Counted from the first letter of the stretch, positions 11,201 to 63,866 are shown. The stretch: DNA of 64,000 nt from a bacterium (GCA_021796335.1 JAJYHZ010000002.1:29728-93727), one strand, 5' to 3'. Program-made: numbers and translations. The notes: a model not told the origin generated them from the sequence alone.

Positions 11201-11226
11201 AAATATTGAACGATCGTTCAATATTT
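11201..11226. promoter_or_regulatory. 26-bp perfect palindrome aaatattgaaCGATCGttcaatattt upstream of the pilin genes
   Basis: Perfect inverted repeat centred on CGATCG; member of a dispersed family (see findings). Confidence 0.5.
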
Positions 11227-11295
11227 AGATCGATTATTCACATTTACAAAAATGTAAATATACGCCTGCATAAATGAAATGGATAATCTCTTTAT

Positions 11296-12789
11296 TTATT
11301 TTAATTCGTCCCAGGAAATTATTTGGTACGTAGTCGATGTCAGCGGAAAATCGGGCGGCGGATTATACAGCAAATTAGAATCGTAAGTGATATTCCTGTT
11401 CTGATACCCGGTTCCGTCAGTGTAAGCGAATCCGTAACGCTGGTTGGACATAATCATGCCGTAAAGATTGATAGTCGATCTGATTGCGTATGGATTGCAC
11501 CTCGGTTGATTATTATATCCGGCTCTGTAGTAAAATCTCCCCACTCTTCCGTTTTGCGCAACTAAAGCGCCGTCTATGGTAAGCGTATCGGCGCTTTGCA
11601 GACCGACATCTATATCACCCTGAGATATCAAACCAAGAGAATCCTGGCCGTTAAAGTTGGAGTACAGCAGGTTGTTATTAATAATAATCTGCGGCCATTT
11701 TGCAGAATTTTCCGGAAAACGGGCAACGCCGATTGTAAGCCGGGCATTATTAATCTGTCCTTCCACCCAAAGATTATCTTCAACGAAAATTAAATTATCG
11801 GCGGGGAAATTATAATTTTTGACGAATTGCTCGCTTTTAATAGTCCACGTTCCCCAGTTTTGTTCTCCCAAAACACTGACGCAACCATTAGGCGAACTGA
11901 GAACGGAATTAACTTTGTATAAATCAAAAGTTCCGTCTGTTTTAAAAATTATATGATAGCCCTGGGCATTGGAGGGGCCGATGTAAATCCCGTTTGACTG
12001 GGCATCTGATTTCATCTGATTGAGATTGCTGGTTATGCCCGTAAAATCAACCGCGGGAACGGGAAATTGGCGGCCGGCCATAAAAACATCCGATCTGTTC
12101 ATAACGGGATTAGGCGGAGCTTCCAGCGGCCTGAAGGTGTCATTTTCTCCGGTCAACGGCGGAATATTAACATGAGTATGGACTCCAAACTCTTGGTTGC
12201 CCGAGTGATCCGGATCATTGTAGGCGGATAAAGCGCTGGAAACTATGTTATGTGCAAGGCCGTCGAAACGGATTCCGCCATTGGAGTAAATAGGACCGAA
12301 TACCTCCGTCCCCTGACCAAAGCGTATGTCCGAATTGGAAACTGTCGCATATTGCGCGAAAGAAGGAATCCCCATTTTCACCTGAATGATTTTTGAAACA
12401 GTCGGATCAGCGGTAACCGTGCCGGTTGATTTGATAATTACCAGAGTCGAACCTTGCGGCGGCGGAGTTATATCCAAACTGAATTGCCCTATCAAATTTC
12501 CACTTTTATCATAGTAGCTATGAATATAAGGTCCGGGATGGCCTGTGCCGTCTTGAAAATCCTGCGGCGCATGAGCCAAATGCCATCTGTAATATTCAAC
12601 GCCCGCTTCGGATATTTCAAAAGCCTGTTCATTATTCTCGTTGCGGACTGCGGCATTTATCATAGTGTTCGCCCACAACAGAAACCCGGAAAGCAAAATT
12701 ATCGCCAAAGCGCCGTAAAGTAAAATTTGGACGGAAAGCTGACCGTGAATAGTTTTTAGTTTACAGTTTTTAGATGTCAGGTTATTCAT
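11296..12789 (-). CDS. PilX-like pilus assembly / minor pilin protein
   Basis: N-terminal TM helix followed by NENNEQAFEISEAGVEY, resembling the PilX_N pattern (QQAFyAAEAGl); large C-terminal domain. Confidence 0.45.
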   Translation of the reverse strand: MNNLTSKNCKLKTIHGQLSVQILLYGALAIILLSGFLLWANTMINAAVRNENNEQAFEISEAGVEYYRWHLAHAPQDFQDGTGHPGPYIHSYYDKSGNLIGQFSLDITPPPQGSTLVIIKSTGTVTADPTVSKIIQVKMGIPSFAQYATVSNSDIRFGQGTEVFGPIYSNGGIRFDGLAHNIVSSALSAYNDPDHSGNQEFGVHTHVNIPPLTGENDTFRPLEAPPNPVMNRSDVFMAGRQFPVPAVDFTGITSNLNQMKSDAQSNGIYIGPSNAQGYHIIFKTDGTFDLYKVNSVLSSPNGCVSVLGEQNWGTWTIKSEQFVKNYNFPADNLIFVEDNLWVEGQINNARLTIGVARFPENSAKWPQIIINNNLLYSNFNGQDSLGLISQGDIDVGLQSADTLTIDGALVAQNGRVGRFYYRAGYNNQPRCNPYAIRSTINLYGMIMSNQRYGFAYTDGTGYQNRNITYDSNLLYNPPPDFPLTSTTYQIISWDELK

Positions 12790-13434
12790 TTAATCGTTTG
12801 TTCTTAAATTTCTCGGAGTGACGGAAGTGAAAAAAATTTCCGGAGCGGTTTGATTCGGCTCTTGGGCAATTAATCGTATCGAGACGGTTCTGATATTGGA
12901 AATGTTTATCGGATACGCCATCGGCGGCTCGCTACCATCATAACCAGAATCGTAATAAGTAAAAATACTGGATGTGCCCATCGCCATATTGTGAACCATT
13001 TCAGAAATTTGTTCGGAATTCGGATCGTAAACAAGCGGATTGCCCGCGGGCTTAATTACGCCTTTTTTAAATGTAGTGCCGTCCAAAAAATACCTGACCT
13101 GATCCGGAACTCCGTCTCCGTCAATGTCGCTGAAAAAAGTGATTGAACTTGTGGAAACTTGCGCTATGGCATACGCGCCGAGGCCGGACGATTCCATGGG
13201 ACGCATTTCCGACGCCATCGTCTCAAGAGTCTGCTGGGCTTCTTGTTGAGTTTCAAAACTTTGTGCCAAAGAAAGGCTGAAAGTCGAAATATTCGCGGAA
13301 AGAAGGAAAATCACGGCAATAATAACGACGAAAATAGCCGCGCTGACCAAAATTTCGATTAAAGTAAAACCTTTGGAATCAGAATTTGAAATACAAAATA
13401 TAGGATTTAGAGGTTTATGACATTTAATTTTCAT
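12790..13434 (-). CDS. minor pseudopilin (prepilin-type N-terminal domain, GspJ/PilW-like)
   Basis: SKG|FTLIEILVSAAIFVVIIAVIF class III signal after an unusually long leader; 214 aa. Confidence 0.5.
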   Translation of the reverse strand: MKIKCHKPLNPIFCISNSDSKGFTLIEILVSAAIFVVIIAVIFLLSANISTFSLSLAQSFETQQEAQQTLETMASEMRPMESSGLGAYAIAQVSTSSITFFSDIDGDGVPDQVRYFLDGTTFKKGVIKPAGNPLVYDPNSEQISEMVHNMAMGTSSIFTYYDSGYDGSEPPMAYPINISNIRTVSIRLIAQEPNQTAPEIFFTSVTPRNLRTND

Positions 13435-15118
13435 TTTGAGGCAAAGATTTTTTCTTCAGCGACTTGAAAATCAAAGCGCCAGCGACCAGCATAACGCCGA
13501 AGCCGACAATATAATAAATCAACGCCATAGGAAGCGATCCGCTCGCAACGCGCTGTTTATCGGGAATGGAAAACGATTTTGCGGAAGCAACTTTTTTATA
13601 AGCATTATTTCCTATTTTTTTATAAACTATCGCGTAATAATTTCCGGGTTTTAAATCGGCGGCGGCGGTGTAGTCGGCCGAGCCGGCGGAAATCTGTTTT
13701 ATTAGCTGACTTTTTGAATTAAAGATATCAATTCGAAATCCCTGATTCGATTCCGCGGAAGACGGCCAAGAAATCACGGCTGAGCTGTTTGAAGAACCGG
13801 AGCCGCTTCCGTTATTCGTGCTTATATTCAAATTCGGCGCCTGGCTTGATTGAGTTTGGGTGGCGGTAGCGGTTTGACTCGTTTGAGAAATTTGGCCGGT
13901 TTGATTGTTATCAGTAAAAGCCTGGGGATTGATCAACGAACCTTGAAGCGTATTAAAATTTAAGTATGCCTCCGCAAAATCGCCGGACGGATCGATGGAA
14001 ACAATCATAGCGACGTATTTAGTATCCGAACTCAAAACGTTTTCAGTAATAAGCAAATGCTCTAGTTCGTAAGTTTCATCGCCGACACTGGTAAGGGTTT
14101 GAGAACCCGGCTTATCCAGCCTAATCAACAAACTGGAGTTGGCGGCTTCGTTTGTTTCCCAGGAAATTTCCACGGAGCTGGTGCTTAAGGCGACAATCTG
14201 AGGATTGGAGATTGCGAGCTGAATCGCCGTGGAAGTGCTTTCATTGTTCGGCGCAGTAGATGAAGTCGTCGAGGCACTAGGCTGCCAGCCGGGCGAACTA
14301 ATGAAGGAACCTACGTAGCTTCCTTCATTTCCCCAATTGTCTTTTACAAAAAGCTGAAAAACATACGCGACATTAGGCATGACGGACAAATCCATACTAC
14401 ATGTTCCTAATCCGTACTGGCAGGTAAAATAATTCCCCGAATAATTCGTACTTTGAACAGCACTTTGATTTTCAAGCGGCCAATAAGAAATTTTATAATC
14501 AGCCGGCTCATTGGTATTGAAATTAATTCTGACGTCATTGGAATCCAAAACCGAAGGAATGACATTGGAAAGAATCGGAGCGGAAACATCGCCTGTTTCA
14601 TAAAGGGAGAAATTAAAAGTATAAGGCTGTTCATTCGAACCGAGATAAACCGGACCGATTTGCTTGTCTAAAGTATCGTTCGAATTCTGAACCTGTAATT
14701 GGACCATGTCGGTGTAATAAATTCTCAACTGAGGCATGGAACTTTTAATTTCGATTTTATAAGTTTGGTCGCTTGCAACCTTAACGGGAGAATTCAGTTC
14801 TACGTGAAATCTTTGGCCGCCCCAAGTTGTCGGAGCTATATACGGAACGGTTATTGTTTTAGAAGAAAGGATGTTATCACTATCATCAAGCAGAATAAAA
14901 GTTGCCTGTCCCGAAGAACTGGTATTCGCCAGAAAGAAATCAAATCCGCTCAAATAATCGTCGAATGGAATAAAAGTCTGATAAGGTGTTTGAGCCGAGG
15001 CTACAAACAAATAATCCGAAGTATACGGATTGTATTCATAATATTTCAATTCCGCGGCGGATGATAAGACCGGGATCGAAATTAAAATAAATAAAGTTAT
15101 AAAAATTTTTTTGGCCAT
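13424..15118 (-). CDS. secreted surface protein with a C-terminal TM anchor, possibly pilus-associated or an adhesin
   Basis: Signal peptide (FITLFILISIPVLSSAAE), S/T-rich extracellular repeats, C-terminal hydrophobic anchor plus KKK. Confidence 0.4.
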   Translation of the reverse strand: MAKKIFITLFILISIPVLSSAAELKYYEYNPYTSDYLFVASAQTPYQTFIPFDDYLSGFDFFLANTSSSGQATFILLDDSDNILSSKTITVPYIAPTTWGGQRFHVELNSPVKVASDQTYKIEIKSSMPQLRIYYTDMVQLQVQNSNDTLDKQIGPVYLGSNEQPYTFNFSLYETGDVSAPILSNVIPSVLDSNDVRINFNTNEPADYKISYWPLENQSAVQSTNYSGNYFTCQYGLGTCSMDLSVMPNVAYVFQLFVKDNWGNEGSYVGSFISSPGWQPSASTTSSTAPNNESTSTAIQLAISNPQIVALSTSSVEISWETNEAANSSLLIRLDKPGSQTLTSVGDETYELEHLLITENVLSSDTKYVAMIVSIDPSGDFAEAYLNFNTLQGSLINPQAFTDNNQTGQISQTSQTATATQTQSSQAPNLNISTNNGSGSGSSNSSAVISWPSSAESNQGFRIDIFNSKSQLIKQISAGSADYTAAADLKPGNYYAIVYKKIGNNAYKKVASAKSFSIPDKQRVASGSLPMALIYYIVGFGVMLVAGALIFKSLKKKSLPQNEN

Positions 15119-16965: not shown

Positions 16966-16979
16966 TTTTAAGGTTTAGT

Positions 16980-18059: not shown

Positions 18060-18284
18060 TCAGCACATAACTTCTCCGATTTTCTATTGCATAAGGCGCA
18101 ATCAAACCAGGAAATTAAGATTTATTTTTAAAATTTTAATTCTCATTTATAACTATTCTTAAGAGAAGTTATGCATGGAATGAATCCCTTATATGACTTC
18201 TCTTATTTTAATTATATAAAAAGTTAAAAAAATTAATTTATAATTCCATTATAATTATTTTTAAAAAAATATGTATGAAAAATT

Positions 18285-19511: not shown

Positions 19512-19647
19512 GGTAATATATTAGCAGACTGCCGATAATATTTAAAGAAAGATTAAACTTGATTGCAAATCAAAGATTGAAAAATTAATTTCCCCAAATA
19601 ACCTTCTCAAATATTTTAATTTTCAATTTAGCAATCTTGCAATTTAA

Positions 19648-22112: not shown

Positions 22113-22187
22113 TAGAAATTATTGACAGCATCAAAAAATCCGTTCGCCGCGGCGAACGGATTTTTTTGGGCGCGATTGATAAAATTA

Positions 22188-23036: not shown

Positions 23037-23158
23037 CGCACCTCACTAAAGTTCGGTGCTCAATTTCCAATCGGCCTAATTTCTAATTTTCTAAAATTTA
23101 GAAAATTAGGTTGATTAGGACCTAGAATAATCCGAGCATCTCGCCTTGGTGAGATGCG
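23037..23158. repeat. 122-nt element with terminal inverted repeats, copy 1 (inside rnpB, P15-17 region)
   Basis: Identical to 23411-23533 except for a 1-nt indel. Termini cgcacctcac ... gtgagatgcg are inverted repeats; internal long palindrome cctaatttctaattttctaaaatttagaaaattagg. Confidence 0.75.
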
Positions 23159-23410
23159 ACGGGTACGGCCTTGCACCCAATAAGGATTTAGCCGTTTCAC
23201 CCCTGGCGTTTCCGTCAAGGCTATTCCCGAAGGAATTTCCAATCCTTTCGGATTAGAACGTCTCTGCTCGCACCTCTCACATTGCTGCGGCCGGCTGTTA
23301 GCCAGTATCTTTTTAATCCATTGCCTTTTAGTTAAGAGAAGTTGCTTGGATTTAACCAAACAAATTTCATATAAAAAGCGCTGGAATAAGTGTCCGGACC
23401 TTCCTCTCGC

Positions 23411-23533
23411 GCGCACCTCACTAAAGTTCGGTGCTCAATTTCCAATCGGCCTAATTTCTAATTTTCTAAAATTTAGAAAATTAGGTTGATTAGGACCTAG
23501 AATAATCCGAGCATCTCGCCTTGGTGAGATGCG
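23411..23533. repeat. 123-nt element with terminal inverted repeats, copy 2 (inside rnpB at the P3 position)
   Basis: As copy 1; sits between the putative P2 5' strand and the P4 5' strand. Confidence 0.75.
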
Positions 23534-23584
23534 CCGAGCTATCGCTCCCTTACATCACTAATTTTAAATCAATTCTAATATTTG

Positions 23585-25263: not shown

Positions 25264-25272
25264 TTTAAAAAA

Positions 25273-26815: not shown

Positions 26816-27934
26816 TTACTTTAGAGCAGTGATTCCGGGTAATTTTTCCCCCGCTAAATACTTTAACATGGCTCCCCCTCCAGTGGAAAGGAAGACGTTA
26901 TTGGAAACTTTTTTGTTTTTAAAAAGAGCTGCAGTTTCACCTCCGCCGATTGCGGCAAAAGCTTTACTTTGTCCAATAGCTTTTATAATTCCTTCGGATC
27001 CTTTTTTAAATTTGATATTTTCAGCCATGCCCATAGGTCCGTTCCAAATAATTGTTTTAGCAGTTTTTAAAATTCGCGAGTATTTTTTAATGGATTCCGG
27101 ACCGATATCTAAAATTTTTCTATCGCTGACAGCATAGTCATCCGGCAAAATTATTTTCTTTGACTTTGAAATTTGTTCAGCGAAATTAACCGCATCTTTT
27201 TCCCAGATTGAATTCCCTATCGGCAAACCTTGAGCTTTCAAAAAATTATTGGCAATCCCTCCGCCAACTAAAAAGTGATCCGCTTTTTTTAAAAAATTTT
27301 TAATCAAGCTTATTTTGTCGGAAATCTTTGCGCCGCCCATGACAACTACTAAAGGATGTTCCGGGTTCTTTAAAACTTTATCCAGATTTTCGATTTCTTT
27401 TTCCAGAAGCAGCCCGGCGTAGGACGGCAAAAATCTTGTAATTGCACAAACAGAAGCCGCTTGGCGATGGCTTACCGCAAAAGCGTCGTTTACATAAACA
27501 TCGCCGATAGAAGCAAGCTGTTTTGCAAAATTTTTATTATTTTCTTCTTCGACCTTTTGAAATCTTAAATTTTCCAGAAGAAAAATTCTGTTTTTTGATT
27601 TTCTAATTCTTCCTCGTATACTATCACGCGTGATAGTAGATAAATCGATAAATTCAATTTTGGTTTTTAAAAGGTTTTCAAAAATTTTTACAAAAGGCTT
27701 TAAAGAGAAGCTCGCAGTTCGCGGTTTATGGCTTATATTTTTTTTCGGGCGCCCTCTGTGAGACAATAAAACAATTTTCGCGTTATTTTTTGAAAGAAAT
27801 TTTATGGTCGGCAAAATCGCCTGAACGCGCAGATTTTCTTTTTCCAATTCGTCATCTTTAATATTCAAATCAACCCGCAATAAGCATATTTTTCCGGATA
27901 AATCTTTTTTTGAAAGCGCAGACAACAATTTCAT
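26816..27934 (-). CDS. pgk: phosphoglycerate kinase
   Basis: VVMGGAKISDKISLI...LVGGGIANNFLKAQG and the N-terminal RVDLNI motif; 372 aa. Confidence 0.75.
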   Translation of the reverse strand: MKLLSALSKKDLSGKICLLRVDLNIKDDELEKENLRVQAILPTIKFLSKNNAKIVLLSHRGRPKKNISHKPRTASFSLKPFVKIFENLLKTKIEFIDLSTITRDSIRGRIRKSKNRIFLLENLRFQKVEEENNKNFAKQLASIGDVYVNDAFAVSHRQAASVCAITRFLPSYAGLLLEKEIENLDKVLKNPEHPLVVVMGGAKISDKISLIKNFLKKADHFLVGGGIANNFLKAQGLPIGNSIWEKDAVNFAEQISKSKKIILPDDYAVSDRKILDIGPESIKKYSRILKTAKTIIWNGPMGMAENIKFKKGSEGIIKAIGQSKAFAAIGGGETAALFKNKKVSNNVFLSTGGGAMLKYLAGEKLPGITALK

Positions 27935-28595: not shown

Positions 28596-28801
28596 TTGTT
28601 ATTGCTCCTCCTTTCTTTTTTATAAAATTTTTAAAAGGTCAGAAATGACCTTGATTACTTTAATTATAATAACTTATTTTATAAAAATGTCAATACAACA
28701 TGTGCATTTAAAAAACCTGGCTCTAATGTCTCTTGGAAAGAAAATGCGGATAACGGATTCAATATTTTACGATCGTAAAATATTGGATTTTGGAAAAGAC
28801 T

Positions 28802-30717: not shown

Positions 30718-31932
30718 CTAGTCGTTAGATGAGGGATTTATCTTTTGGATAAATCCGTAGATTTCTTCGGGCGAGTAAAAACTGATAATGATTTCGCCGC
30801 CTTCGCCTTTTTTCTGAATCTTTACCGGAGCGCCAAGAGCTTCTTTCAGTTTTTCTTCAATATGCTTAATTTCATATTCATCGCTGGAAGCGCCAAAAGA
30901 TTTTTCAACGGAACTCTTCGCTTTCTGGATGCGATGGCGAAGCTGGCGCACAGTCAGATTATTAGCAAGAATATCCTGAAACAACTGTTTTTGAACGGCG
31001 GGATTGGTCATTGTTAAAAGCAAACGCGCCTGGCTTTCGTTGATTTGGTTTTTGGAAACCGCATTTTGAACTTCAGTCGGCAAATTTAAAAGACGCAGCG
31101 TATTGCTGACTGCTTCGCGGCTTTTGCCCAAGCGACCGGCGATTTCCCTCTGAGTCAGTCCAAATTCATCCTGCAAGCGGGAGTAAGCGCGGGCGGTTTC
31201 GATCATATCCAGATCGGATCGCTGCAGATTTTCGATAATCGCCAATTCAAGCTGCTCTGTTTTTTCTCCGCCCATTTTGCGGATAATCACCGGCACTCTC
31301 TCAAGGCCCACCAGCTTGGCGGCGCGCAGTCTTCTTTCTCCGGCGATAAGCTGGTATTCCACTTCAGTTCCCATTTCGGTATCTTTTTCTATTTTGGAAA
31401 CAACCAATGGCTGAAGAATTCCGTATTCACGGATTGAGTTGGCAAGTTCTTGCAGAGCCTCTTCGTTAAAATTTTTCCTAGGCTGAAAAGGGTTGGGCTT
31501 TATTTTCTCAACTTCGATATGGAAAATGGCGTCATTTAAGAACTTTTTCGCGTTATGCGGTTTGTGATAGCCGCCGTATTCCTCCGAAGCATCTTGATTT
31601 GCTGTTGAATTTTTTAGCCGAGAATCATCGGAAAAATTTTGTATGCTATCAGTACTGATAGCGGAAGATTTCGGCGCGCTTAAAATTTGAGCCGATTCCG
31701 CGAATCCGGAAATTTCTTTTGGTTTCGGAGGAGCTGAAATTTCCGCCGGCTCTTCCGGCGCGTTAACTTCGGGAACATTGCGAAACTTATCGGAAATGAC
31801 TTTACCGATCGGAGTAAGCTCCGGATTTTCTTTTTCCGGTTCGGCGTTGTTTAATTCGCCGTTATTATCCGGTTTTTTCGGCGGTATTAAAGAATTCAAA
31901 CCCTGACCTAACATAGGGAAATTATATAACAA
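30718..31932 (-). CDS. parB: ParB/Spo0J partition protein with a long disordered N-terminal extension
   Basis: ParB box GERRLRAAKLVGLERVPVIIR, HTH, C-terminal dimerisation region. Confidence 0.7.
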   Translation of the reverse strand: MLYNFPMLGQGLNSLIPPKKPDNNGELNNAEPEKENPELTPIGKVISDKFRNVPEVNAPEEPAEISAPPKPKEISGFAESAQILSAPKSSAISTDSIQNFSDDSRLKNSTANQDASEEYGGYHKPHNAKKFLNDAIFHIEVEKIKPNPFQPRKNFNEEALQELANSIREYGILQPLVVSKIEKDTEMGTEVEYQLIAGERRLRAAKLVGLERVPVIIRKMGGEKTEQLELAIIENLQRSDLDMIETARAYSRLQDEFGLTQREIAGRLGKSREAVSNTLRLLNLPTEVQNAVSKNQINESQARLLLTMTNPAVQKQLFQDILANNLTVRQLRHRIQKAKSSVEKSFGASSDEYEIKHIEEKLKEALGAPVKIQKKGEGGEIIISFYSPEEIYGFIQKINPSSND

Positions 31933-33627: not shown

Positions 33628-34395
33628 TTAGAGATTTTCTCGGGCGAGGATTTCTCTCGCCAGTTGTTCGTACGCCTTGGCGCCGTCAGAAATCGGGTCA
33701 TGCAAAACCGCCGGGCGACCGAAGCTTGGCGCCTCGGCCAGAGAAGCGGAACGCGGGATCATTGTTTCGAAAATATGATACGGGAAGCTGGCTTTTAACT
33801 GCTCGGCAAGTTCTTGGGACAATTTTTCGTTTTCGTCGTACATAGTGATAACTGCGCCGGCAATGTTCAAATTGCTCGACAAATTGTTTTTAATCATATC
33901 GACGACTTCCAGAAGCTGATTCAATCCCTCCAAACTCAGGTAGTGCGACTGGATAGGAATCAAAACCTCGTCGGCAGCAATTAAACCATTAACAGTCAGC
34001 AAGCTTAGTGACGGCGGCAGATCAATTAAAATATAATCATATTGTTCGCGGATTCGGTCAATTAATTTTTTCAATTGGAATTCTCTTTCGTTAACTTCAA
34101 CTAACTCAATTAATGCCCCGGCCAAATGTTGGCTGGCCGGAAGCAGATGATAATTATACAAAGAAGTCGGTTTAATCAGTTTTTCAACTTCAGTTAAATT
34201 AAAAATTCCATGATAGACGCTTTCAAAATTATCTTTTGCCGGATAGCCTAAAGCGGAGCTGGCGTTGGCCTGCGGATCAAAATCAACCACTAAAACTTTT
34301 TTGCCGGCCAAAGCCAAATAAGCCGCCAGATTTACCGCAGTTGTGGTTTTTGCAACTCCTCCCTTTTGATTGTAAACAGCAATAACTCGGGACAT
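33628..34395 (-). CDS. parA: ParA/Soj partition ATPase
   Basis: Deviant Walker A KGGVAKTTTAVNLA, VVDFDPQ, 255 aa. Confidence 0.75.
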   Translation of the reverse strand: MSRVIAVYNQKGGVAKTTTAVNLAAYLALAGKKVLVVDFDPQANASSALGYPAKDNFESVYHGIFNLTEVEKLIKPTSLYNYHLLPASQHLAGALIELVEVNEREFQLKKLIDRIREQYDYILIDLPPSLSLLTVNGLIAADEVLIPIQSHYLSLEGLNQLLEVVDMIKNNLSSNLNIAGAVITMYDENEKLSQELAEQLKASFPYHIFETMIPRSASLAEAPSFGRPAVLHDPISDGAKAYEQLAREILARENL

Positions 34396-43895: not shown

Positions 43896-44234
43896 ATGTT
43901 AATCATCAAATTAAAAAGAATCGGTAAAAAACATCAAGCTTCTTTCCGAATAATTGTAACGGAAAAGCGCTCCAAAATGACCGGGCGCTATGTTGAAGAT
44001 CTCGGTTTTTGGAATCCGCACAAAAACCAGTTAGGTGCCAAGAAAGACCGCATTCAATATTGGATTAAATCAGGAGCTCAGACAACGGAAACAATTCATA
44101 ATCTTTTGGTAAAAAATGGCATTATTCAGGGGCATAAAATTCCGGCTTATATTCCAAAATCCGCCCCTGCCGAAACGGCGCCGGTTCAGAAAACGCCTGC
44201 GGGACCGGAACAGCCATCAGCCGAAACTCAATAA
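43896..44234 (+). CDS. rpsP: 30S ribosomal protein S16 with a C-terminal extension
   Basis: MLIIKLKRIGKKHQASFRIIVTEKRSKMTGRYVEDLGFWNP is the canonical bS16 N-terminus. Confidence 0.8.
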   Translation: MLIIKLKRIGKKHQASFRIIVTEKRSKMTGRYVEDLGFWNPHKNQLGAKKDRIQYWIKSGAQTTETIHNLLVKNGIIQGHKIPAYIPKSAPAETAPVQKTPAGPEQPSAETQ

Positions 44235-44276
44235 AAAATCCCCGTGGGGATTTTTTATTTCCGCGAAACTAAAACA

Positions 44277-45859: not shown

Positions 45860-45893
45860 AAAATCCGCCACGTTCAACGTGGCGGATTTTTGT
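45860..45893. terminator. terminator aaaatccgccacg-ttcaa-cgtggcggatttttg
   Basis: 13-bp stem with an A-tract and a T-tract. Confidence 0.6.
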
Positions 45894-47856: not shown

Positions 47857-47893
47857 AGCTGATAGTTATTAGCAAGTTGGTTGTTAGTAGTTT

Positions 47894-47927
47894 AAAAAAG
47901 AGGTGATATATATCACCTCTTTTTTTC
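47894..47927 (+). terminator. terminator aaaaaagaggtgatatatatcacctcttttttt
   Basis: Perfect hairpin gaggtgatat/atatcacctc plus a T-run. Confidence 0.65.
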
Positions 47928-48342
47928 TGCACTTTTTAGTTCTGTGGGCGAAAATAAAAGTCTTACAGGAGTAAGAAATCAAGAACCCCTTCGAGGAGAG
48001 ATCCAGCCAAAACCAGATCATCCGAAATACTAAAAGAAATTCCTATAAACCCACAGGACTAAGAAGTCCAGATTCTATATTCTTCTACAAAAGGGAGTAA
48101 TAAAAAACACCCTTTTAAGAGTATTAAATTCAATTCTTTTCCCATTATAGCGGGTTTTATAAATTTGTCAAGACCAGGCAAGGTTAGATTGATTTTTGTA
48201 AAAATAAGGAAAGCCCCGGATTGTACGGGGCTTAATAATTGAAAAGAATATTTTAAGGATCTCCAATTGAATAAAGAAGGCGAAAAAGAAAAGAAATGAT
48301 TGAAATTGAAATTGTGTATTGTGTTTTGAAATTTAAATTATA

Positions 48343-48379
48343 GAGGACGATCGCGCGTAGGTACGTACGCGGTCCTCTG
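48343..48379. repeat. GC-rich nested palindrome agaggac-gat-cgcgta-ggtacg-tacgcg-g-gtcctct in an ORF-free region
   Basis: Two nested perfect stems (7 bp and 6 bp) around GTACGTAC. Confidence 0.5.
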
Positions 48380-48689
48380 TGCTGATTTCTTTTTCTTTTC
48401 CAATTATTCAATTGTAATTTTATTTTAATTCTTTTAATTCAATAGTCAATACGACACGACGTTCAGGCAGAGCATGGATCTCACGAAAAAAACGGTTTCA
48501 GCAGAAAAATAAAGTCGCAAACGATGGAAGGAAAGAGAAAAACCGCCACTATAATCCCTTTCTCTCTTTCCGTAAGTTCACTGAAGATTACCGTCTTTGT
48601 CAGAATAGCTTTCATTATTACCCCTTTCTTTAAGCGATATCTGGATATTCTGTTTTAATTTTATCCAATGTTTTACTTTTTTAAAAGAG

Positions 48690-48698
48690 TGCTATAAT
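48690..48698 (+). promoter_or_regulatory. extended -10 element TGcTATAAT for the 48786-50880 operon
   Basis: Consensus TGnTATAAT about 88 nt upstream of the first ATG. Confidence 0.35.
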
Positions 48699-48785
48699 TT
48701 ACATAATTAATAATTTATAAGGAGAAAATTCCGAAGTTAAAACGCGATTCAAACTTCGAAGATTTTAACTTTATAAATATCCGCT

Positions 48786-48983
48786 ATGCTAAAAAATAAC
48801 CAGCATAATCTGATCCATCAGCTTTCGGAAATTTCCGACAGCCTTTGGAGAATCGAAAAACACTATCTTGATGAATCGAAAAGTTGTGAATCCTGCGTTG
48901 AAATATGGAGAATACTCCACCAGGATTACGAAAAACATATAGCCATGCTTTCCGAAGAAATAAAGAAGCACATAAACGATTAA
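48786..48983 (+). CDS. small hypothetical protein (65 aa)
   Basis: ORF whose TAA stop overlaps the next gene's ATG (TAATG). Confidence 0.3.
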   Translation: MLKNNQHNLIHQLSEISDSLWRIEKHYLDESKSCESCVEIWRILHQDYEKHIAMLSEEIKKHIND

Positions 48984-53858: not shown

Positions 53859-53895
53859 TTGCTAATAGCTAATAGTGAATTGGCAAAATAACAGC

Positions 53896-53928
53896 AAAAA
53901 TCCGTCCGCCACCGCAGACGGATTTTTG
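53896..53928 (+). terminator. terminator aaaaatccgtccgcc-accgc-agacggattttt
   Basis: Hairpin plus a T-run after the preceding gene. Confidence 0.55.
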
Positions 53929-56321: not shown

Positions 56322-56403
56322 ATTTAAATTATTCTAATGCCAAATCATTCTAATTTCTAAACTTTAAGTTAATTAGAGTAATTAGTTAATTAGAAATTCG
56401 AAG

Positions 56404-56955: not shown

Positions 56956-57034
56956 AAAATCACTCTATCCGGTGTTTTTAATCAAACATGTTTATATAAA
57001 TATTACCGTTATTATTGAGAGAAATCAAAATTTT

Positions 57035-57070
57035 CAATCAAATTTTGAGCGATCGCTCAAAATTTGATTG
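57035..57070. repeat. 36-bp perfect palindrome caatcaaattttgaGCGATCGCtcaaaatttgattg
   Basis: Perfect inverted repeat; a near-copy at 62207-62244. Confidence 0.7.
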
Positions 57071-57099
57071 GTTATCCACATGACTTCAAAAAGGCTTGC

Positions 57100-57753: not shown

Positions 57754-58160
57754 TAACTTGAAATAATTTTATGTATTTCTGTGCCGCTTATCGGGATACC
57801 TTTTTTGTCAAAAAATTTTAAGCCATTATATTTTTTTGGGTTGTGAGAAGCAGTTACCATTATTCCAAAATCTGCCTTATTTTCATTAACTAAAAAAGAA
57901 AGCATGGGAGTGGTACACATTCCTACTGGAATAATTTTTAACTTTAAATTTTTAATTTTTAAAGCGCTTATAGTTGCCCTGTATAAATTCGGCGAAGAAA
58001 GGCGGGCATCGCGGCCAATTACAACAGTTTTTAGATTTATAGTTTTTAGTTGGTTAGTAAAAAATGCTGAAATTATATTTTTTACGATTTTTTCATTTAT
58101 TTCGCTCGGATAAATGCCGCGAATGTCATAGGCGCGGAATATTTTAGAGTCAAGATTCAT
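57753..58160 (-). CDS. phosphoglucomutase/phosphomannomutase domain I only (truncated; possible gene remnant)
   Basis: IFRAYDIRG and the active-site GIMVTASHNP are present, but the ORF ends after 135 aa and domains II-IV are absent. Its stop overlaps the holB start (TAATG). Confidence 0.5.
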   Translation of the reverse strand: MNLDSKIFRAYDIRGIYPSEINEKIVKNIISAFFTNQLKTINLKTVVIGRDARLSSPNLYRATISALKIKNLKLKIIPVGMCTTPMLSFLVNENKADFGIMVTASHNPKKYNGLKFFDKKGIPISGTEIHKIISS

Positions 58161-58280
58161 GTATCAAGTATCAGGCAAAATAAAAATCTGGGCAATATTG
58201 ACAAAATTAATCTAATGTAGTAGAAACTAATCAGGACAAAAAGCTGGTTTCCAGCTACAAAAATAAACACGAGGTGAAAA

Positions 58281-58715
58281 ATGTTCAAAGCGCGAATAGC
58301 TAATAGTGGAATATTTATCCTGGTGTTTGCAGCACTGGCGGTTATTTTGCCCCATGTGAGCTCTTCTGAGTCCGCAGGGCTTCGGGTTTTCGCTGGAATT
58401 ATATTCCTTATTGCGGCCTTAGTCTTGGCAATAATAGGCGGCGGATGGGATAGTTACGGAAAAACAATTAAAGTAAGCGAACTCCCGGGCGGAATTTCCC
58501 TTGTCGTAGCAACAACAGTACCATCTCATAATCTTATCAAGATTTACAGAAGTGATGTTCCGAGCGATGAAAGATTTGTATCGGTTAACTCGACCTCACA
58601 ATTTCACACAGGAATGATTTTTCGCAGAACAAATTTCAGTAAAGAGCAAATGGAAATTCTTAACCCAAAAATATTTTTTACCGAGGGAAAGATAGTTCTT
58701 CAAATAAAGTCTTGA
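58281..58715 (+). CDS. hypothetical membrane protein
   Basis: Two N-terminal TM helices; terminator at 58733-58760. Confidence 0.35.
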   Translation: MFKARIANSGIFILVFAALAVILPHVSSSESAGLRVFAGIIFLIAALVLAIIGGGWDSYGKTIKVSELPGGISLVVATTVPSHNLIKIYRSDVPSDERFVSVNSTSQFHTGMIFRRTNFSKEQMEILNPKIFFTEGKIVLQIKS

Positions 58716-58732
58716 ATGCCGTAATTTACAAG

Positions 58733-58760
58733 AGGCGGGAGAAATCTCGCCTGTTTTTTT
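58733..58760 (+). terminator. intrinsic terminator aggcg-ggagaaatct-cgcct-gttttttt
   Basis: Stem plus a T-run. Confidence 0.5.
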
Positions 58761-58817
58761 AATTTTATCATCTGTGAAATTAGATTTTTCTCCGCCAACT
58801 GGCGGATCAGAATGGCT

Positions 58818-60137
58818 TTATTTCAGCCTTTCTTTTAAATAATCTTCTAAAGCTGAAATTGATACTCTTTCTTGCTTCATCGAATCGCGGTTGCGGACAG
58901 TCACATCGTTATTTCCCAAACTATCAAAATCAATTGTTATGCAATAAGGAGTCCCGATTTCGTCCTGATAACGATAACGCTTTCCGATATTTCCCCTGTC
59001 ATCCCAAAAAGTCGGAAATTGTTTTTTTAAGTCAGTATAAATTTCCCGCGCTTTCCCGACTAAATTTTCTTTGTTTGCCAATAATGGAAATACCGCGACT
59101 TTATACGGAGCAATATTTGGATTTAATTTTAAAACAATTCTGGTTTCGCCATTCTCTAACTGTTCTTCATTATAAGCTTCAACCATAACTGCCAAGAAGG
59201 TGCGGTCAACTCCGAAAGTCGGCTCAATGACATGCGGAATAAATCTTTTGCCGGTTTGCTCGTCAAAATATTCCATGCTGACTCCAGAATATTTTTGGTG
59301 CCGGGACAAATCGTAATCAGTCCTGTAAGCAATCGCCCATAATTCGTCTTTTCCGAATGGAAACGGATACTCCATATCAATGGTGCGCTTGGAGTAAAAT
59401 GCGCGTTCGCCGTCGGGAATTTCATGGTCGAAAAGTTTTTTCTTATCCAGGCCGATTATATCGGCAAAATTATGGATATATTTTACCCACTCTTCAAAAA
59501 TTTTAATCCAATCAGAATCGGGATTAATGAAATACTCTATTTCCATTATTTCGAATTCCAAAGTGCGGAAAATAAACTGGCCGGTAGTGATTTCATTTCG
59601 AAAAGCTTTTCCGATTTGGCCTATGCCGAAAGGAATTTTTTTGTTGGTGGAGCTTAAAACATTTTTATAATCAACGAATATATTTTGAGCTGTTTCACCT
59701 CTTAAATATGCCAATGTTTGATCGCCCTCGACCGGTCCTATCATAACCTTAAAAAGCAGGCTGAAGGGGCGCGGTTCTGTAAATTCTCCTCCGCAAACCG
59801 GGCATTTGGAAGCATCTTCTAATTTATCCGGCCTGAATCTGCGATGGCATTTTTTACATTCAACCAATAAATCTTTAAATCCCGAAACATGCCCGGAGGC
59901 TTCCCAAATTTTTGCATTTGAAATTATACCGCCGTCCAAGCCAACCATATCATCCCTGTCCTGGATAAAATATTTCCACCAGGCTTTTTTAATGTTATTT
60001 TTCAGCTCAACTCCCAGATGGCCGTAATCGTAAGTATTGGCCAAGCCGCCGTAAATTTCCGAGCCGGGAAATATAAAGCCTCGCCTTTTGCAAAGCGAGA
60101 CTATTTTCTCCATTAAGTTTTTATCTTGACTGGTCAT
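58818..60137 (-). CDS. glyQS: glycine--tRNA ligase (dimeric alpha2 type)
   Basis: N-terminal FIFPGSEIYGGLANTYDYGHLG, zinc-knuckle insertion CKKCHRRF...CPVCGG, class II motifs FRNEITTGQFIFRTLEFEIMEIEYF. Confidence 0.75.
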   Translation of the reverse strand: MTSQDKNLMEKIVSLCKRRGFIFPGSEIYGGLANTYDYGHLGVELKNNIKKAWWKYFIQDRDDMVGLDGGIISNAKIWEASGHVSGFKDLLVECKKCHRRFRPDKLEDASKCPVCGGEFTEPRPFSLLFKVMIGPVEGDQTLAYLRGETAQNIFVDYKNVLSSTNKKIPFGIGQIGKAFRNEITTGQFIFRTLEFEIMEIEYFINPDSDWIKIFEEWVKYIHNFADIIGLDKKKLFDHEIPDGERAFYSKRTIDMEYPFPFGKDELWAIAYRTDYDLSRHQKYSGVSMEYFDEQTGKRFIPHVIEPTFGVDRTFLAVMVEAYNEEQLENGETRIVLKLNPNIAPYKVAVFPLLANKENLVGKAREIYTDLKKQFPTFWDDRGNIGKRYRYQDEIGTPYCITIDFDSLGNNDVTVRNRDSMKQERVSISALEDYLKERLK

Positions 60138-62000
60138 TTATTTTACCGAATCGTTAGTTTTCAAATTATCAATACTACTATTCAGGCTAAGATTAGTAAA
60201 GGTGTCTGTCGCAGTTACGGAAACCGGACTCATAATCAAAAGACTTTGGCCGGATTGAGTGACGTTCGGAGTAATCTGAATTTGGAAAACGGCCTCAACC
60301 GGACTGCTGATAACGCCTCTTGTTGCCAAAACTTTATCGATATTCCAGGTTACCTGGCCGGTTCTATCATCGTATTGAGGAATTGAATTTACGTTGCTGG
60401 TAACCACGTTAAGCCATTGCGCTCCTTGCAAGGTGCCCGTAAAATTAACGTTACTTATGTCGGTGGAGTAATTTTTTAAAAGCCAATGTACTTCATAGAC
60501 AGTCGGCTTGTTAATTTCCGGCGGGTAAGGCCCTTTAATGACTTTCATATATTCGCTTGGCTCGATCGCACCGGAAATTTTCGTTTCCAAATCCGCCAAA
60601 CCGACTGTTTTATCACTGGAAACATTGTACGGAACGGTTGGCGAATCTATTTCCCCTTGAACGCTTAGCACGAAATTTTTATCAAACATTCTTTTGATGG
60701 GAAAGGTTGATTTGGTATTGATGGAAAAGTTAATCTGGCTAGAACTTCCAGGAGCCAAAGATTTCAGACTTGCATCATTGCCCGCGTTCCAGGTTATGGT
60801 ATTAGAAGTCGAATCGAAATTGCCGTCTGTTTTCAAGGTTGAAAAATCAAACATATCGCCTTTTAATTTTATTTTCACAACGGCATCATTTAAAGCAACA
60901 TCTGTATTATTGCCGTAGCTGACTTGATAATTCAAAGTGTTATTTAAAGCCGCTATATAATTCGGATCATTATTAATCGCTAATCCCAGCGAAATCGGTG
61001 AAGCGGCAATATTCAAATCGGCGGTTTTTTCATTAATCGTGTAATCCTGATTATCATAATTAACAATGACGTCGGCTTTGGCCTGAAAAAATGTTTGATC
61101 AGAAACTGGCAAACTTCCGGTAATGACGAACGAATTCTGCGAATTCGGGCTTATTTGAGAAATCACCCAGACGTTGTTACTTGAAGTCGGAGCGACGGTG
61201 GCTTGTTTAAACACAAATCCCTGGGGATAAGTAAGCCGGATTTTGGCATTTTCGAAATTCGCATCAGAGCTATTGTTATAATTTACATTGATTTGAAAAT
61301 CTTGGCCGCTGAATATTTTTTGCGGAGTCATAAAATTTAAATCGATCGCCGGTTGATCGACATTAACCTTGATAGATTCGGTTCTTTCAAATCGCGTTTT
61401 GAGATTCTGCGGCACGTATGAAAAATCCACATCAAATTCTTTGACTGTTTGCGGGTCTTGCAAAATTACGACTTTGTAATCTTTTTGGAAGGTTTCTCCG
61501 CCGTTCATGTTGCCGATATCTTCTTCAATGGTCTGTTTGCCGCCGGCCTGATTATCCAAGCTTATAACCCCCTCAGGCAGGGTAATTATGAATTTCGAAT
61601 CATTCATGGCATTTTGCGATTTATTCGTAATAGAAACGCTGATGTCGAAAGGTTGCGCAAGCATGACTTTGTCAGGAGCATTGAGAGTAAAGTTTAAATC
61701 ACTCGCTTTGCTGAAATAATGGAGATAAAGGTAAACAAAACCTCCTCCGATTAAGACAACGCCGAGCAAAATCCAAAAAAGCGATTTTATAAATCTTCCG
61801 AAATTGTTCATAAATCCTGATTTTTGACCATTGGAATTAATTTCAATTTTCTGGTCATCCCAGGTATTTTTAAAATTCTGGCCGGAATTTTCATTATTGT
61901 CCGTCCGGTTTTTAATTTGCTGTTTCTGAAGATTAATTGTACTCCCCTCTTGATCGGGATTAAGATCATATAATTTTTTTTCCAAATCCTCCAAAGACAT
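60138..62000 (-). CDS. large hypothetical membrane-anchored extracellular protein
   Basis: Cytoplasmic N-terminus, one TM (LFWILLGVVLIGGGFVYLYL), large S/T/N-rich repeat-like ectodomain. Confidence 0.35.
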   Translation of the reverse strand: MSLEDLEKKLYDLNPDQEGSTINLQKQQIKNRTDNNENSGQNFKNTWDDQKIEINSNGQKSGFMNNFGRFIKSLFWILLGVVLIGGGFVYLYLHYFSKASDLNFTLNAPDKVMLAQPFDISVSITNKSQNAMNDSKFIITLPEGVISLDNQAGGKQTIEEDIGNMNGGETFQKDYKVVILQDPQTVKEFDVDFSYVPQNLKTRFERTESIKVNVDQPAIDLNFMTPQKIFSGQDFQINVNYNNSSDANFENAKIRLTYPQGFVFKQATVAPTSSNNVWVISQISPNSQNSFVITGSLPVSDQTFFQAKADVIVNYDNQDYTINEKTADLNIAASPISLGLAINNDPNYIAALNNTLNYQVSYGNNTDVALNDAVVKIKLKGDMFDFSTLKTDGNFDSTSNTITWNAGNDASLKSLAPGSSSQINFSINTKSTFPIKRMFDKNFVLSVQGEIDSPTVPYNVSSDKTVGLADLETKISGAIEPSEYMKVIKGPYPPEINKPTVYEVHWLLKNYSTDISNVNFTGTLQGAQWLNVVTSNVNSIPQYDDRTGQVTWNIDKVLATRGVISSPVEAVFQIQITPNVTQSGQSLLIMSPVSVTATDTFTNLSLNSSIDNLKTNDSVK

Positions 62001-62206
62001 AAAATAAAAAATTAAAATATCTAGTTATTCTAATTTCTAAAAACTAAAAATATTCAGTGTGTCGTTTTGAACGCAGTGAAAAATCTGATTTTATTCAATA
62101 AAATTCTGACCGGTGACACAAAAAGCTTGATTAAATAATAAATCATTTTGGACGAATTTTAAAGACTGATTCATTATTCTATTGTTACAATTTGTGAAAT
62201 GTGGAT

Positions 62207-62244
62207 CCAATCAAATTTTCTGCGATCGCTCAAAATTTGATTGG
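62207..62244. repeat. 38-bp near-perfect palindrome ccaatcaaattttctGCGATCGCtcaaaatttgattgg
   Basis: Copy of the 57035 palindrome with 2 central mismatches. Confidence 0.7.
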
Positions 62245-62840
62245 GAACTTCTTATTTTTATTAAATCCGCATTTTTTGCCGTTTTAAAAGCAGGAAGAGA
62301 ACATTTGAGGCATAAAAATTCATTATCCACCTTATTGAAATAAAACGTATTTTTATTGGAGCAAACCGCGCATTGGGAGAACTCCGGATTAAAGCCGCTC
62401 ACTTTTAAAATAAGCTGGTATGCCTGAAACTCGTCCAAATCTCTTTTGATTATTTCCTTAATCACCTGCCATAAGAGCAGATCCGGCTGAAATTCAAAAG
62501 TCATATCATCGATAAAATTGATTATGCGCAAATGTTTGATTAATGATTCCTGATTACCTTTTATTTTTTTCAGATTTTCTTTGTCGGAGAGCGCGTCAAT
62601 TAGTTGAAAATAGCCGTTTTTATTGTTAATAAGCCGAATCTTAACGAAACTTAACGGTTCCAGATGCGGATTGGACTTGGAAAGTATTCGGCGCAAGCCT
62701 TTGGCTTTGGCAATAACCTTACCGAATTGTTCGGTATAAAAATAAATCAACCCGTCTGTATCGTTAAGAGCTTCCTTATTTAGAACAATAGCCTCAGAAT
62801 AGTATTCAAGCATAGAAATAGCGAAATTAATTGTTAGCAA
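62211..62840 (-). CDS. recO: DNA repair protein RecO
   Basis: N-terminal OB fold (EAIVLNKEALNDTDGLIYFYTEQFGKV), C-terminal zinc finger CAVC...CLKC. Confidence 0.55.
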   Translation of the reverse strand: MLTINFAISMLEYYSEAIVLNKEALNDTDGLIYFYTEQFGKVIAKAKGLRRILSKSNPHLEPLSFVKIRLINNKNGYFQLIDALSDKENLKKIKGNQESLIKHLRIINFIDDMTFEFQPDLLLWQVIKEIIKRDLDEFQAYQLILKVSGFNPEFSQCAVCSNKNTFYFNKVDNEFLCLKCSLPAFKTAKNADLIKIRSSQSNFERSQKI

Positions 62841-63099
62841 TTAGTCTTTAGTTATTAGAATATCATAAATCCGTTAGTTTTCACCTTAAAATAATACCTT
62901 GATAAAATCTAATATTTGACGCCCACCCACAAGCAAACAAAATCGTCAAATATTAAATTTTTTGGATTATAAAAAGTGCGGAAAATGGCAGGAATCTTTA
63001 AAATAACCAGATTTTATGCGATTTTTTACTACTTGACAAAATCAATTTATTTATTATAATTAATGCAGAAACTAAAAACTGAAAGGGGGAATTTTATAG

Positions 63100-63363
63100 A
63101 TGAAAGAAAGAAATGATTTTTTTAGACTAGCGAATATGCTGGCGGGTATTAGCGGAGCCTTATTCGCTATTGCTTTATTTTTTCTTTTCGGCATATTTAT
63201 GCTGTATGGCAGCAAAAACAATCTTCCGGTTGAGTGGCGGTTCGTATATCCGTCAGGAATCGTGAAAACCATGTATGTTCTGATAATTGTGGGGGCAATC
63301 AGCGCCTTACTGAGCACTTTTGCAAAAAGGCTCGGTGTCCCCTCGAAAAGAAGTGCGAGGTGA
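63100..63363 (+). CDS. small hypothetical membrane protein
   Basis: Two TM helices. Confidence 0.3.
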   Translation: MKERNDFFRLANMLAGISGALFAIALFFLFGIFMLYGSKNNLPVEWRFVYPSGIVKTMYVLIIVGAISALLSTFAKRLGVPSKRSAR

Positions 63364-63365
63364 CA

Positions 63366-63601
63366 TGGGAAAGCAGAAATATTGGTACGAAGCCCAAGGA
63401 TCTGCGTTAGGACGCAGATTCAGCGGGCAGATGTATGTCGTAAACGAGGACGAAGCATTGGTCGTCCTCGAGAAACGGATCAAAAAATACGCGAAGGAGC
63501 AGTTGGGCATATATAAAGAATTCATAGATTTAATACAGCCCAATGCCAGTAGGATCACCTTGAGCTTTGGGCAAAGACCCATATGGCTCGAGGAGATTTA
63601 A
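63366..63601 (+). CDS. small hypothetical protein (GC-rich ORF)
   Basis: MGKQKYWYEAQG...; the start is taken at the internal Met; GC is higher than the surroundings. Confidence 0.25.
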
Positions 63602-63770
63602 CCCTTCCCGCAAAAATGCGCAAGCATGGCGGGAGGGGATTTTTTTTGAAAATTATTTTAAAGAATTATATTGCTTATATTATTTAAATCCGCTTCCGCA
63701 GGCCTACCTGCCTGTCGGCAAACAGGCAAGGCTAAGAGAATTTTGATATTCGTGCTTAATAATTTTTATT

Positions 63771-63804
63771 ATCGTATATTTTGACGATCGTCAAAATATA
63801 CGAT
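63771..63804. repeat. 34-bp perfect palindrome atcgtatattttgaCGATCGtcaaaatatacgat
   Basis: Perfect inverted repeat centred on CGATCG. Confidence 0.7.
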
Positions 63805-63832
63805 TGGCAAGAGTATGTTTGAATTTAAAAAG

Positions 63833-63866
63833 GTATACAATTCCAACGATCGTTAAATTTGTATAC
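63833..63866. repeat. 34-bp imperfect palindrome gtatacaattccaaCGATCGttaaatttgtatac
   Basis: Outer arms gtatacaa/ttgtatac and inner arms aacgatcgtt are palindromic. Confidence 0.6.

Follow-up and report, generated by a model that had tools for sequence, protein, structure and literature searches.

The window analysed here is a 64-kb stretch of DNA (64,000 nucleotides; JAJYHZ010000002.1:29728-93727, assembly GCA_021796335.1) from a metagenome-assembled genome which a scan anchored on glycyl-tRNA synthetase (GlyRS) assigned to the Patescibacteria (Parcubacteria-type), in the candidate phyla radiation (CPR). Its spacers hold long palindromes, or dyads, centred on CGATCG, which the initial annotation had presented as a dispersed family of five members and proposed to be either operator sites for a dimeric regulator or elements similar to repetitive extragenic palindromic (REP) sequences. 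The family was followed in the window, in 19 kb of adjoining sequence from the L087 and L089 extensions (83 kb of readable sequence in all for the source genome) and in metagenomes, where some of its members adjoin the gene of a small PaaX-like protein. In the tiny genomes of Patescibacteria hardly any regulators can be recognised and no repeat family of such kind has been described; in the searchable literature no description was found of the dyad family, of its pairing with a PaaX-like gene, or of relevant work on PaaX operators or CPR palindromes.

CGATCG-centred dyads in the window

Six dyads were found in the window, and for each an arm score was determined as the number of self-complementary positions among the 14 flanking CGATCG. 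Site 1 (11201-11226; AAATATTGAA-CGATCG-TTCAATATTT; arm score 12/14) is a perfect 26-bp dyad lying 70 bp past the stop codon of a 497-aa gene and about 160 bp ahead of a pilin gene start. Site 2 (28760-28785; CAATATTTTA-CGATCG-TAAAATATTG, full sequence CAATATTTTACGATCGTAAAATATTG; 12/14), also perfect over 26 bp, is located 17 bp past the PolX stop codon and 165 bp ahead of the start of an alpha/beta-hydrolase gene, and is spanned by an unsupported 55-aa open reading frame (ORF) of one public annotation. Site 3 (57035-57070; CAATCAAATTTTGAG-CGATCG-CTCAAAATTTGATTG; 14/14) is a perfect 36-bp dyad, 30 bp past the holB stop and 80 bp ahead of the frr start. Site 4 (62207-62244; 12/14), a near-copy of site 3, is a 38-bp dyad made imperfect by two mismatched pairs, and includes the recO stop codon. 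The site 5 unit (63762-63812, minus strand; 14/14) consists of a perfect 34-bp dyad (63771-63804; ATCGTATATTTTGA-CGATCG-TCAAAATATACGAT) with asymmetric flanks, and lies in a convergent spacer with a 93-aa gene and rtcB on either side. The same spacer holds site 6 (63827-63872; 11/14), an imperfect dyad (63833-63866; GTATACAATTCCAA-CGATCG-TTAAATTTGTATAC) between A5 and T6 tracts and the sole copy with the shape of a bidirectional intrinsic terminator. The 19-kb extension added one further dyad, site 7 (L089:14785-14824), a near-copy of site 5 situated 3.1 kb left of the window, which brings the total to seven copies in 83 kb. The five palindromes first described, three perfect and two imperfect, were thus recovered as they had been reported; the list was incomplete, the perfect site 2 having been missed and site 7 being outside the window. 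All seven copies are intergenic, as had been stated for the first five, with the qualification of site 4 on the recO stop and of the ORF over site 2.

The hexamer CGATCG occurs 18 times in the window against 19.3 +/- 3.9 in shuffled sequences and is therefore not enriched. Six of these sites have arm scores of 11-14 and the other twelve of 1-7, the two groups not overlapping; the chance of a score of at least 11/14 is about 2.5e-4 per site by a binomial estimate. Because CGATCG is at chance frequency and the arm scores split cleanly in two, the distinctive thing is the context of a subset of sites and not the hexamer. One arm-less CGATCG (48348) is also non-coding. The window contains 17 perfect zero-spacer palindromes of at least 14 bp (mean of 9.1 in Markov shuffles), and its four longest AT-rich perfect palindromes are all centred on CGATCG. 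This centre is found in 6 of the 9 long palindromes of the window vs 2 of 30 in a control set of 1.15 Mb from 80 other Patescibacteria loci, where no perfect CGATCG-centred palindrome of at least 18 bp was detected and three imperfect ones have unrelated arms.

The centre is a PvuI site and contains GATC, and the initial annotation had equated it with HIP1, the cyanobacterial octamer GCGATCGC. A reading in which CGATCG or GCGATCGC is functional by itself, as the target of a PvuI- or Dam-type methyltransferase, the arms being incidental, was weighed on these grounds. The identity with HIP1 applies to the centres of sites 3 and 4 only, among the six dyads of the window. HIP1 is described as 15- to 300-fold over-represented in cyanobacteria, with more than one motif per gene in some genomes (PMC5861425), whereas here, in another phylum, GCGATCGC occurs 3 times in 83 kb, there is no over-representation, and the palindromic copies are confined to long intergenic dyads. 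Besides the chance frequency of the hexamer and its twelve arm-less occurrences, GATC is present 268 times against 295 expected, in contrast to a strong avoidance of CTAG and GTAC. Neither a methyltransferase gene, of the Dam/PvuI-like kind suggested at the outset or any other, nor a restriction gene was seen in the 83 kb examined, and related lineages have other centres (see below). A HIP1 or restriction-site effect was rejected on these counts and is in our opinion highly improbable, which removes a tempting but wrong link to cyanobacterial HIP1.

All seven copies fit one consensus, approximately cAAATTTTGA(R)-CGATCG-(Y)TCAAAATTTg, in agreement with the common centre and varying outer arms that had been noticed. 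Substitutions and small indels are mirrored between the arms, and four copies stay perfect dyads though they differ from each other. Sites 3 and 4 are identical at 35 of 37 positions and have a common one-sided tail, which stands in the opposite orientation at site 4, and sites 5 and 7 are identical over 47 of 51 bp, non-palindromic asymmetric flanks included. Because the similarity of both pairs runs asymmetrically past the palindrome, the copied unit appears to be an oriented segment of about 50 bp. No consistent direct repeat of the target-site duplication type expected of miniature inverted-repeat transposable elements (MITEs) was found around the copies, whose shared flanks are asymmetric and unduplicated, and a GTAG/GTGG foot motif was not seen in the flanks of the seven copies. 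Sites 5 and 7 have 6 bp between TTGA and TCAA, and sites 1 and 3 have 8 bp. The CRP/FNR box (TTGAT-N4-ATCAA) and the Cheo-type LexA box (GAAC-N4-GTTC) were rejected as candidates, the half-site spacing not being fixed and GAAC-N4-GTTC being present at site 1 only. Site 3, the only site compared between assemblies, is identical in all six of them, which excludes an assembly artefact; in one (L006) the contig starts inside the palindrome and retains a partial copy.

The sole recurrent flank is a 9-mer similar to the DnaA box, at sites 1-4. It reads TTATTCACA at 11234-11242 (plus strand, about +20 from the centre of site 1), TTATCCGCA at 28745-28753 (minus strand, beside site 2 and in the same dyad-relative orientation as at sites 1 and 3), the exact consensus TTATCCACA at 57072-57080 (plus strand, 1 nt from site 3) and ggATCCACA at 62200-62208 (minus strand, abutting site 4). 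These 9-mers are located about 20 bp from the dyad centre, on one side only and in mixed orientation to the genes; none is found at sites 5-7. When the motif of sites 3 and 4 was tested on the other five sites, two of them (sites 1 and 2) matched with at most one mismatch, both in the matching orientation, for a null rate of 0.017 per site. No enrichment of such a tail was detected at 53 metagenomic palindromes. The DnaA-box tail, significant at sites 1-3 here, was thus rejected as a general component of the family. The tail of site 4 can also be read as a -35-like TCCACA, 18 nt before TAGAAT, towards a 620-aa gene; as a -35 element it works for site 4 only, and this reading of the tail was also discarded.

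A family in metagenomes with a probable PaaX-like partner gene

An inner-core pattern (ATTTTGA, 0-1 nt, CGATCG, 0-1 nt, TCAAAAT), which sites 3 and 5 fit, was searched in the JGI metagenomes and a viral collection. It was found at 62 loci in the metagenomes, many of them from 0.1-µm-filtered groundwater, and in none of the viral contigs. The symmetry reaches about 36 bp in about 50 of the 62 loci, beyond the 20-22 bp demanded by the pattern, and GC-rich contigs, including two with very many CGATCG sites, show no such extension and serve as an internal control. At each of positions 11-17, 78-98% of the 60 unique members are paired and all four pair types occur; beyond position 19, pairing is no higher than background. 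The unit is therefore a dyad of defined length, about 36 bp, whose outer arms are free but symmetric. The TTGA-n-CGATCG-n-TCAA core proposed from the window is real and constitutes the conserved inner core of the family across metagenomes, CGATCG and the adjoining TTGA being the most conserved parts of its members. In single populations, near-identical 36-mers were observed at 4-5 loci with unrelated flanks. Many family members are carried by contigs of about 1 kb, and one contig of the source genome ends inside a palindrome.

On several contigs, two palindromes 610-770 bp apart flank one ORF, and these ORFs are homologous to each other. They match the Pfam family PF20803, the Cas2-like central domain of PaaX, with a winged helix N-terminal to this domain. 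In a profile search of all ORFs, based on crude ORF calls for the metagenomic loci, a PF20803 gene was detected in 12 of the 62 loci, that is 10 distinct ones, two pairs being the same locus sampled twice. All these genes have a palindrome 0-60 bp away, often on both sides, and the control set contained a single PF20803 gene fragment. In the typical layout, one copy is placed 10-100 bp upstream of the PaaX-like start and another on or just after the stop codon. In L094, L140 and L093 the whole promoter is found inside the upstream copy, the core providing the -35 TTGACG and the -10 being placed at the arm end.

The association was also examined from the protein side, with four proteins chosen from 482 family hits blind to the DNA. 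All four genes are bracketed by palindromes of 40-54 bp, with GCGGCCGC, CGGCCG, CGGTCG and GCGATAGC as centres, and they stand in conserved synteny with the leucyl-tRNA synthetase (LeuRS) gene or with thyA-dut. Since blind-chosen members are bracketed by lineage-specific centres, the type of palindrome varies with the lineage of the protein, CGATCG representing one specificity class. The same housekeeping genes are found beside PaaX-like genes with their palindromes in unrelated Patescibacteria, namely LeuRS (L155, L157, L098), thyA-dut (L156, L158) and KsgA (L093, L105). The LeuRS of L155 and L157 have NUDIX/Ham1-like insertions and reach 1205-1332 aa. A longer PaaX-like protein encoded at 1406-2383 of L149, a contig of 54% GC, is also flanked by CGATCG dyads (AACCAAAAATTTGGA-CGATCG-...), and the pairing may therefore extend beyond the short-form proteins.

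The CPR partner proteins have 140-207 aa, and their predicted structure comprises a winged helix and a confident βαββαβ domain. The best solved structural match is E. coli PaaX (PDB 8A39), followed by many Cas2 structures; PaaX is the best match in sequence as well as in fold, over both the winged helix and the PF20803 domain. An FDIPE motif is invariant in the family and has SEGLDK at the same place in PaaX. Its invariant Asp/Glu, lost in E. coli PaaX, fall in the same motif as the conserved YDI of Cas2, and some annotation pipelines label family members 'Cas2'. The operators of PaaX consist of long inverted repeats that a wide spacer separates, and the layout at the partner gene, with its long dyad site, resembles autoregulation. 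Several differences were also found. Most of the CPR proteins are devoid of PF08223, the C-terminal, aryl-CoA-responsive domain of PaaX, and no paa genes are present near any copy. The CPR sites are perfect dyads of about 36 bp, also found far from the gene, and an operator overlapping the promoter was seen for the partner's own gene in the three loci named above and not as a rule at solo copies. A candidate for the co-occurring helix-turn-helix regulator that the initial annotation suggested looking for was thus found in the 10 distinct metagenomic loci, as a PaaX-like winged-helix gene, but not in the 83 kb of the source genome.

Placement, gain and possible role of the copies

When the classifiable copies of the source genome and of the metagenomes were pooled, 23 were co-directional with their neighbouring genes, 11 convergent and 3 divergent, vs about 26/5/6 expected from spacer length (chi-square about 9, p about 0.01, by arithmetic on the pooled counts). 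Among the co-directional copies, 15 are nearer the upstream stop and 6 nearer the downstream start. The copies are thus biased to gene 3' ends and convergent spacers.

This placement bears on a classical regulon, in which each copy would be the operator of one global PaaX-like repressor or activator for the downstream gene (pilin, hydrolase, frr, the operon of GlyRS and the 620-aa protein, or DUF2267). In agreement with such a regulon, the partner, with its winged helix, belongs to a known repressor family, its gene has the conserved synteny expected of a resident regulator, and the copy upstream of it overlaps its promoter in L094, L140 and L093; furthermore, five of the seven copies here have a co-directional downstream gene, and site 4, the only one in the window to abut a plausible promoter (TCCACA-18-TAGAAT), is directly upstream of it. 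However, no promoter is expected in convergent spacers, which hold 11 of the 37 classifiable copies, sites 5 and 6 among them, against only 3 in divergent spacers. No -10 box was found at a fixed offset from solo copies, the distance to the downstream start varies from 97 to 225 bp, and the downstream genes form a mixed housekeeping set with no regulon theme. Perfect symmetry over 26-36 bp with arms differing within one genome is atypical of operators, and the distance between TTGA half-sites varies by 2 bp in the same genome. A regulon of this kind therefore seems unlikely to us.

The history of the copies was approached by comparison with relatives. The source lineage is fairly isolated, its fast-evolving 620-aa neighbour protein (p620) having no relative above 49% identity, and the 80 GlyRS-anchored loci are too distant for a comparison of orthologous spacers (neighbouring proteins 25-40% identical). 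The two closest relatives keep the RuvA-Mur-RecO-p620-GlyRS-holB synteny, but CGATCG is entirely missing from both, and their recO-p620 spacer holds no palindrome. The homology of RecO stops 13 residues before the stop codon here, and the last 11 or so residues are encoded by site 4. As the element is missing from the closest relatives and site 4 encodes the end of RecO, the copies of this genome are lineage-specific gains. Together with the shared flanks of the near-identical pairs, this gain at the recO 3' end, absent in the relatives, argues circumstantially for copying of the element. In the closest relative, a 26-bp perfect palindrome of similar build and different centre (CGAATATTAC-GAATTC-GTAATATTCG; L159:8224-8249) is present at the 3' end of the Mur ligase gene.

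If transcribed, all copies would form stable RNA hairpins of -10 to -22 kcal/mol (z of -4.5 to -9.5), for instance -16.5 kcal/mol (z -6.8) at site 1 and -21.6 kcal/mol (z -9.5) at site 3. The dyads could be protein-independent hairpins of 3' untranslated or intercistronic regions, acting as terminators or as barriers to 3'-exonucleases, with a centre shared by common descent. Their vicinity to stop codons, their enrichment in convergent spacers and the A and T tracts of site 6, which resemble a bidirectional intrinsic terminator, are consistent with this, and the covariation of the arms is compatible with selection for pairing. Nevertheless, the genome already has classical terminators of another build, with an A-tract, a GC-rich stem, a T-tract and many non-self-complementary loops, which are a class apart from the AT-rich CGATCG dyads with their invariant centre. 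Site 6 is the only look-alike, 6 of the 7 copies lack a T-tract, and a consensus terminator scan of the 54-64 kb region called none of sites 3-6. Moreover, an RNA loop need be neither self-complementary nor invariant, yet CGATCG and TTGA are the most conserved parts; nor do hairpins acting without a protein explain the reciprocal link to the gene of a DNA-binding protein and the co-variation of the centre with the protein lineage. We regard such a role as quite unlikely. HIP1, parS (see below), the CRP/FNR and LexA boxes, MITEs and intrinsic terminators each fail a tested defining feature.

The closest analogues of the family are PaaX with its operator, already compared, and the dispersed REP-type repeats of Proteobacteria with their REP-associated tyrosine transposases (RAYTs). 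In both cases, short extragenic palindromes are dispersed, often just past genes or between convergent genes, and the 20-40 bp, extragenic, multi-copy character of REPs is found here with 7 copies in 83 kb. In both, a protein gene is bracketed by cognate repeats at conserved chromosomal positions, and several paralogues are possible per genome. Each paralogue would pair with its own repeat type, as RAYTs do, to judge from members of different genomes. There are differences too: the dyads have no 5' GTAG, and the bracketed gene encodes a winged-helix/Cas2-like protein (PF20803) and not a Y1/HUH transposase, no match to a transposase family being found in the annotated 83 kb. What defines a REP family is a conserved palindrome sequence, whereas the CGATCG family has a fixed centre with variable outer arms and many loopless perfect dyads.

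Taken together, these observations lead us to a reading to which we give about even weight, in which the dyads are cognate sites of a PaaX/Cas2-like protein that have spread in the source genome in the manner of REPs. A Patescibacteria-wide family of dyads of about 36 bp (TTTTGA, an optional base, CGATCG, an optional base and TCAAAA, with free but symmetric outer arms) would be recognised by a small PaaX-like protein in which a Cas2-like ferredoxin-fold domain (PF20803) comes after an N-terminal winged helix. A dimer of this protein would bind the dyad and repress its own gene. In the source genome the element would have spread, as a REP-type dispersed repeat, to seven or more intergenic places, for the most part just past gene ends, and the solo copies would mark the 3' ends of transcription units, bound by protein and/or folded into hairpins, and would not act as promoters. 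Both halves of the initial operator or REP-like proposal thus receive support, and neither is sufficient alone. The operator half is favoured by the winged-helix gene bracketed by dyads elsewhere and by the promoter within the upstream copy at some loci, but not by the solo copies, which have no fixed promoter geometry; the REP-like half is sustained by near-identical copies with common flanks, by the bias to 3' ends and convergent spacers and by the absence of the element from the closest relatives. We conclude that the dyads are probably recognised by a protein; the autoregulatory copy at the partner gene would be an ordinary operator, whereas the dispersed copies of the source genome behave as REP-type repeats. 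If this is true, it provides a directly testable protein-DNA pair in an uncultured phylum and explains one source of contig breaks in CPR assemblies; it may also reveal either a regulatory circuit of major importance in these reduced genomes or a domesticated system of repeat and protein, of a new kind and related to the Cas2 fold.

Several observations weigh against this reading. No PF20803 gene is present in the readable 83 kb of the source genome and the family search gave no member on its long contig, so the presence of a partner in this genome is expected by analogy with the metagenomic loci. The outer arms differ between copies of one genome, which is hard to reconcile with one protein reading the full 36 bp base-specifically. 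The partner comes from a known repressor family and is vertically stable, and in a clade of 176-aa proteins (four loci) the palindromes are found only around the gene, none being dispersed in the surrounding 15-20 kb, as for a plain local regulator. The other assemblies of the source are about 100% identical and offer no presence/absence polymorphism of the dyads between close strains. Finally, since the search pattern required the core, its conservation in the metagenomic set is in part due to ascertainment; the same loci hold extra members that do not fit the pattern (TCTAGA-, TTTGGA- and TTGTGAC-CGATCG), which together with the test from the protein side reveal the real range.

The PaaX/Cas2-like protein could also be a catalytic or structural partner that recognises an extruded hairpin or cruciform, with CGATCG at the apex and TTGA in the stem, and copies or maintains the dyads. 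This is favoured by the invariant Asp/Glu of FDIPE, the symmetry kept despite changes in the arms within one genome, the presence of asymmetric flanks on the copies, and the gain of an element at the 3' end of recO. We consider this version improbable; if true, it would amount to a CPR-specific REP/RAYT-like system built on the Cas2 fold in place of a HUH transposase.

The KorB-OB, ParB-parS and Noc-NBS systems resemble the dyad family in that near-identical scattered palindromes are bound by one helix-turn-helix protein and only some of the copies overlap promoters. They differ from it by the family of the partner and by their sites of 13-16 bp, whose sequence and spacing are fixed and which are often intragenic, against 26-38 bp, intergenic location and variable arms here. 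The window encodes ParB (30718-31932, minus strand) and ParA (33628-34395), and no 16-bp TGTTTCACGTGAAACA-like canonical parS was found within 3 mismatches; as proteins of the ParB family bind dispersed near-identical palindromes, the dyads might be non-canonical parS or centromere-like sites of this ParB. Nonetheless, arms and half-site spacing vary far more than in parS, and the same dyads adjoin PaaX-like genes in the metagenomic loci (not scanned for parB). A better candidate is offered by TATCA-N4-TGATA palindromes (TATCACGCGTGATA, TATCAGTACTGATA, TATCACATGTGATA), found at 27619-27638 inside pgk, at 31645-31662 inside parB and, for the third, about 7.6 kb left of the window in L089. These are candidates for non-canonical parS because ParB and ParA are encoded and canonical parS is lacking, and the dyads themselves have, in our view, a very slight chance of being such sites. 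In this ParB of 404 aa, about 135 residues precede the ParB_N domain as an N-terminal extension.

Other features of the sequence

Classical bidirectional terminators, with A-tract, GC-rich stem and T-tract, are located at 22133-22166, 44230-44259, 45860-45890, 47894-47925 and 53895-53928, and in two of these a perfect palindrome includes the loop (centres CCGCGG and TATATA). Between a 418-aa gene and a tRNA-Gln (8707-8780) lies an AT-rich hairpin of unusual length (8626-8670), with a perfect stem of 20 bp and a loop of 5 nt. About 1 kb without any ORF of at least 70 aa (47857-48904) separates the type II secretion system ATPase gene from a gene of 176-202 aa; it matches no Rfam family at threshold and holds the arm-less CGATCG at 48348. 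One tRNA apart, no Rfam family was recognised.

In the 83 kb, CTAG and GTAC are avoided (37 and 56 occurrences, respectively, vs about 295 expected for each), whereas GATC (268) and TCGA (298) are not, which hints at GTAC-specific restriction in the lineage. A promoter with the perfect sigma-70 consensus TTGACA-16-TATAAT (63033-63060, plus strand) precedes two small ORFs (87 and 93 aa) that overlap and are assigned to no family. Near a DUF488 gene and a 118-aa ORF, a 125-nt direct repeat (23037-23161 and 23412-23536) is present in two copies 99-100% identical and 375 bp apart, each of which contains the 27-nt palindrome CTAATTTTCTAAAATTTAGAAAATTAG; a tandem duplication might account for it, or it may be a regulatory module present twice.

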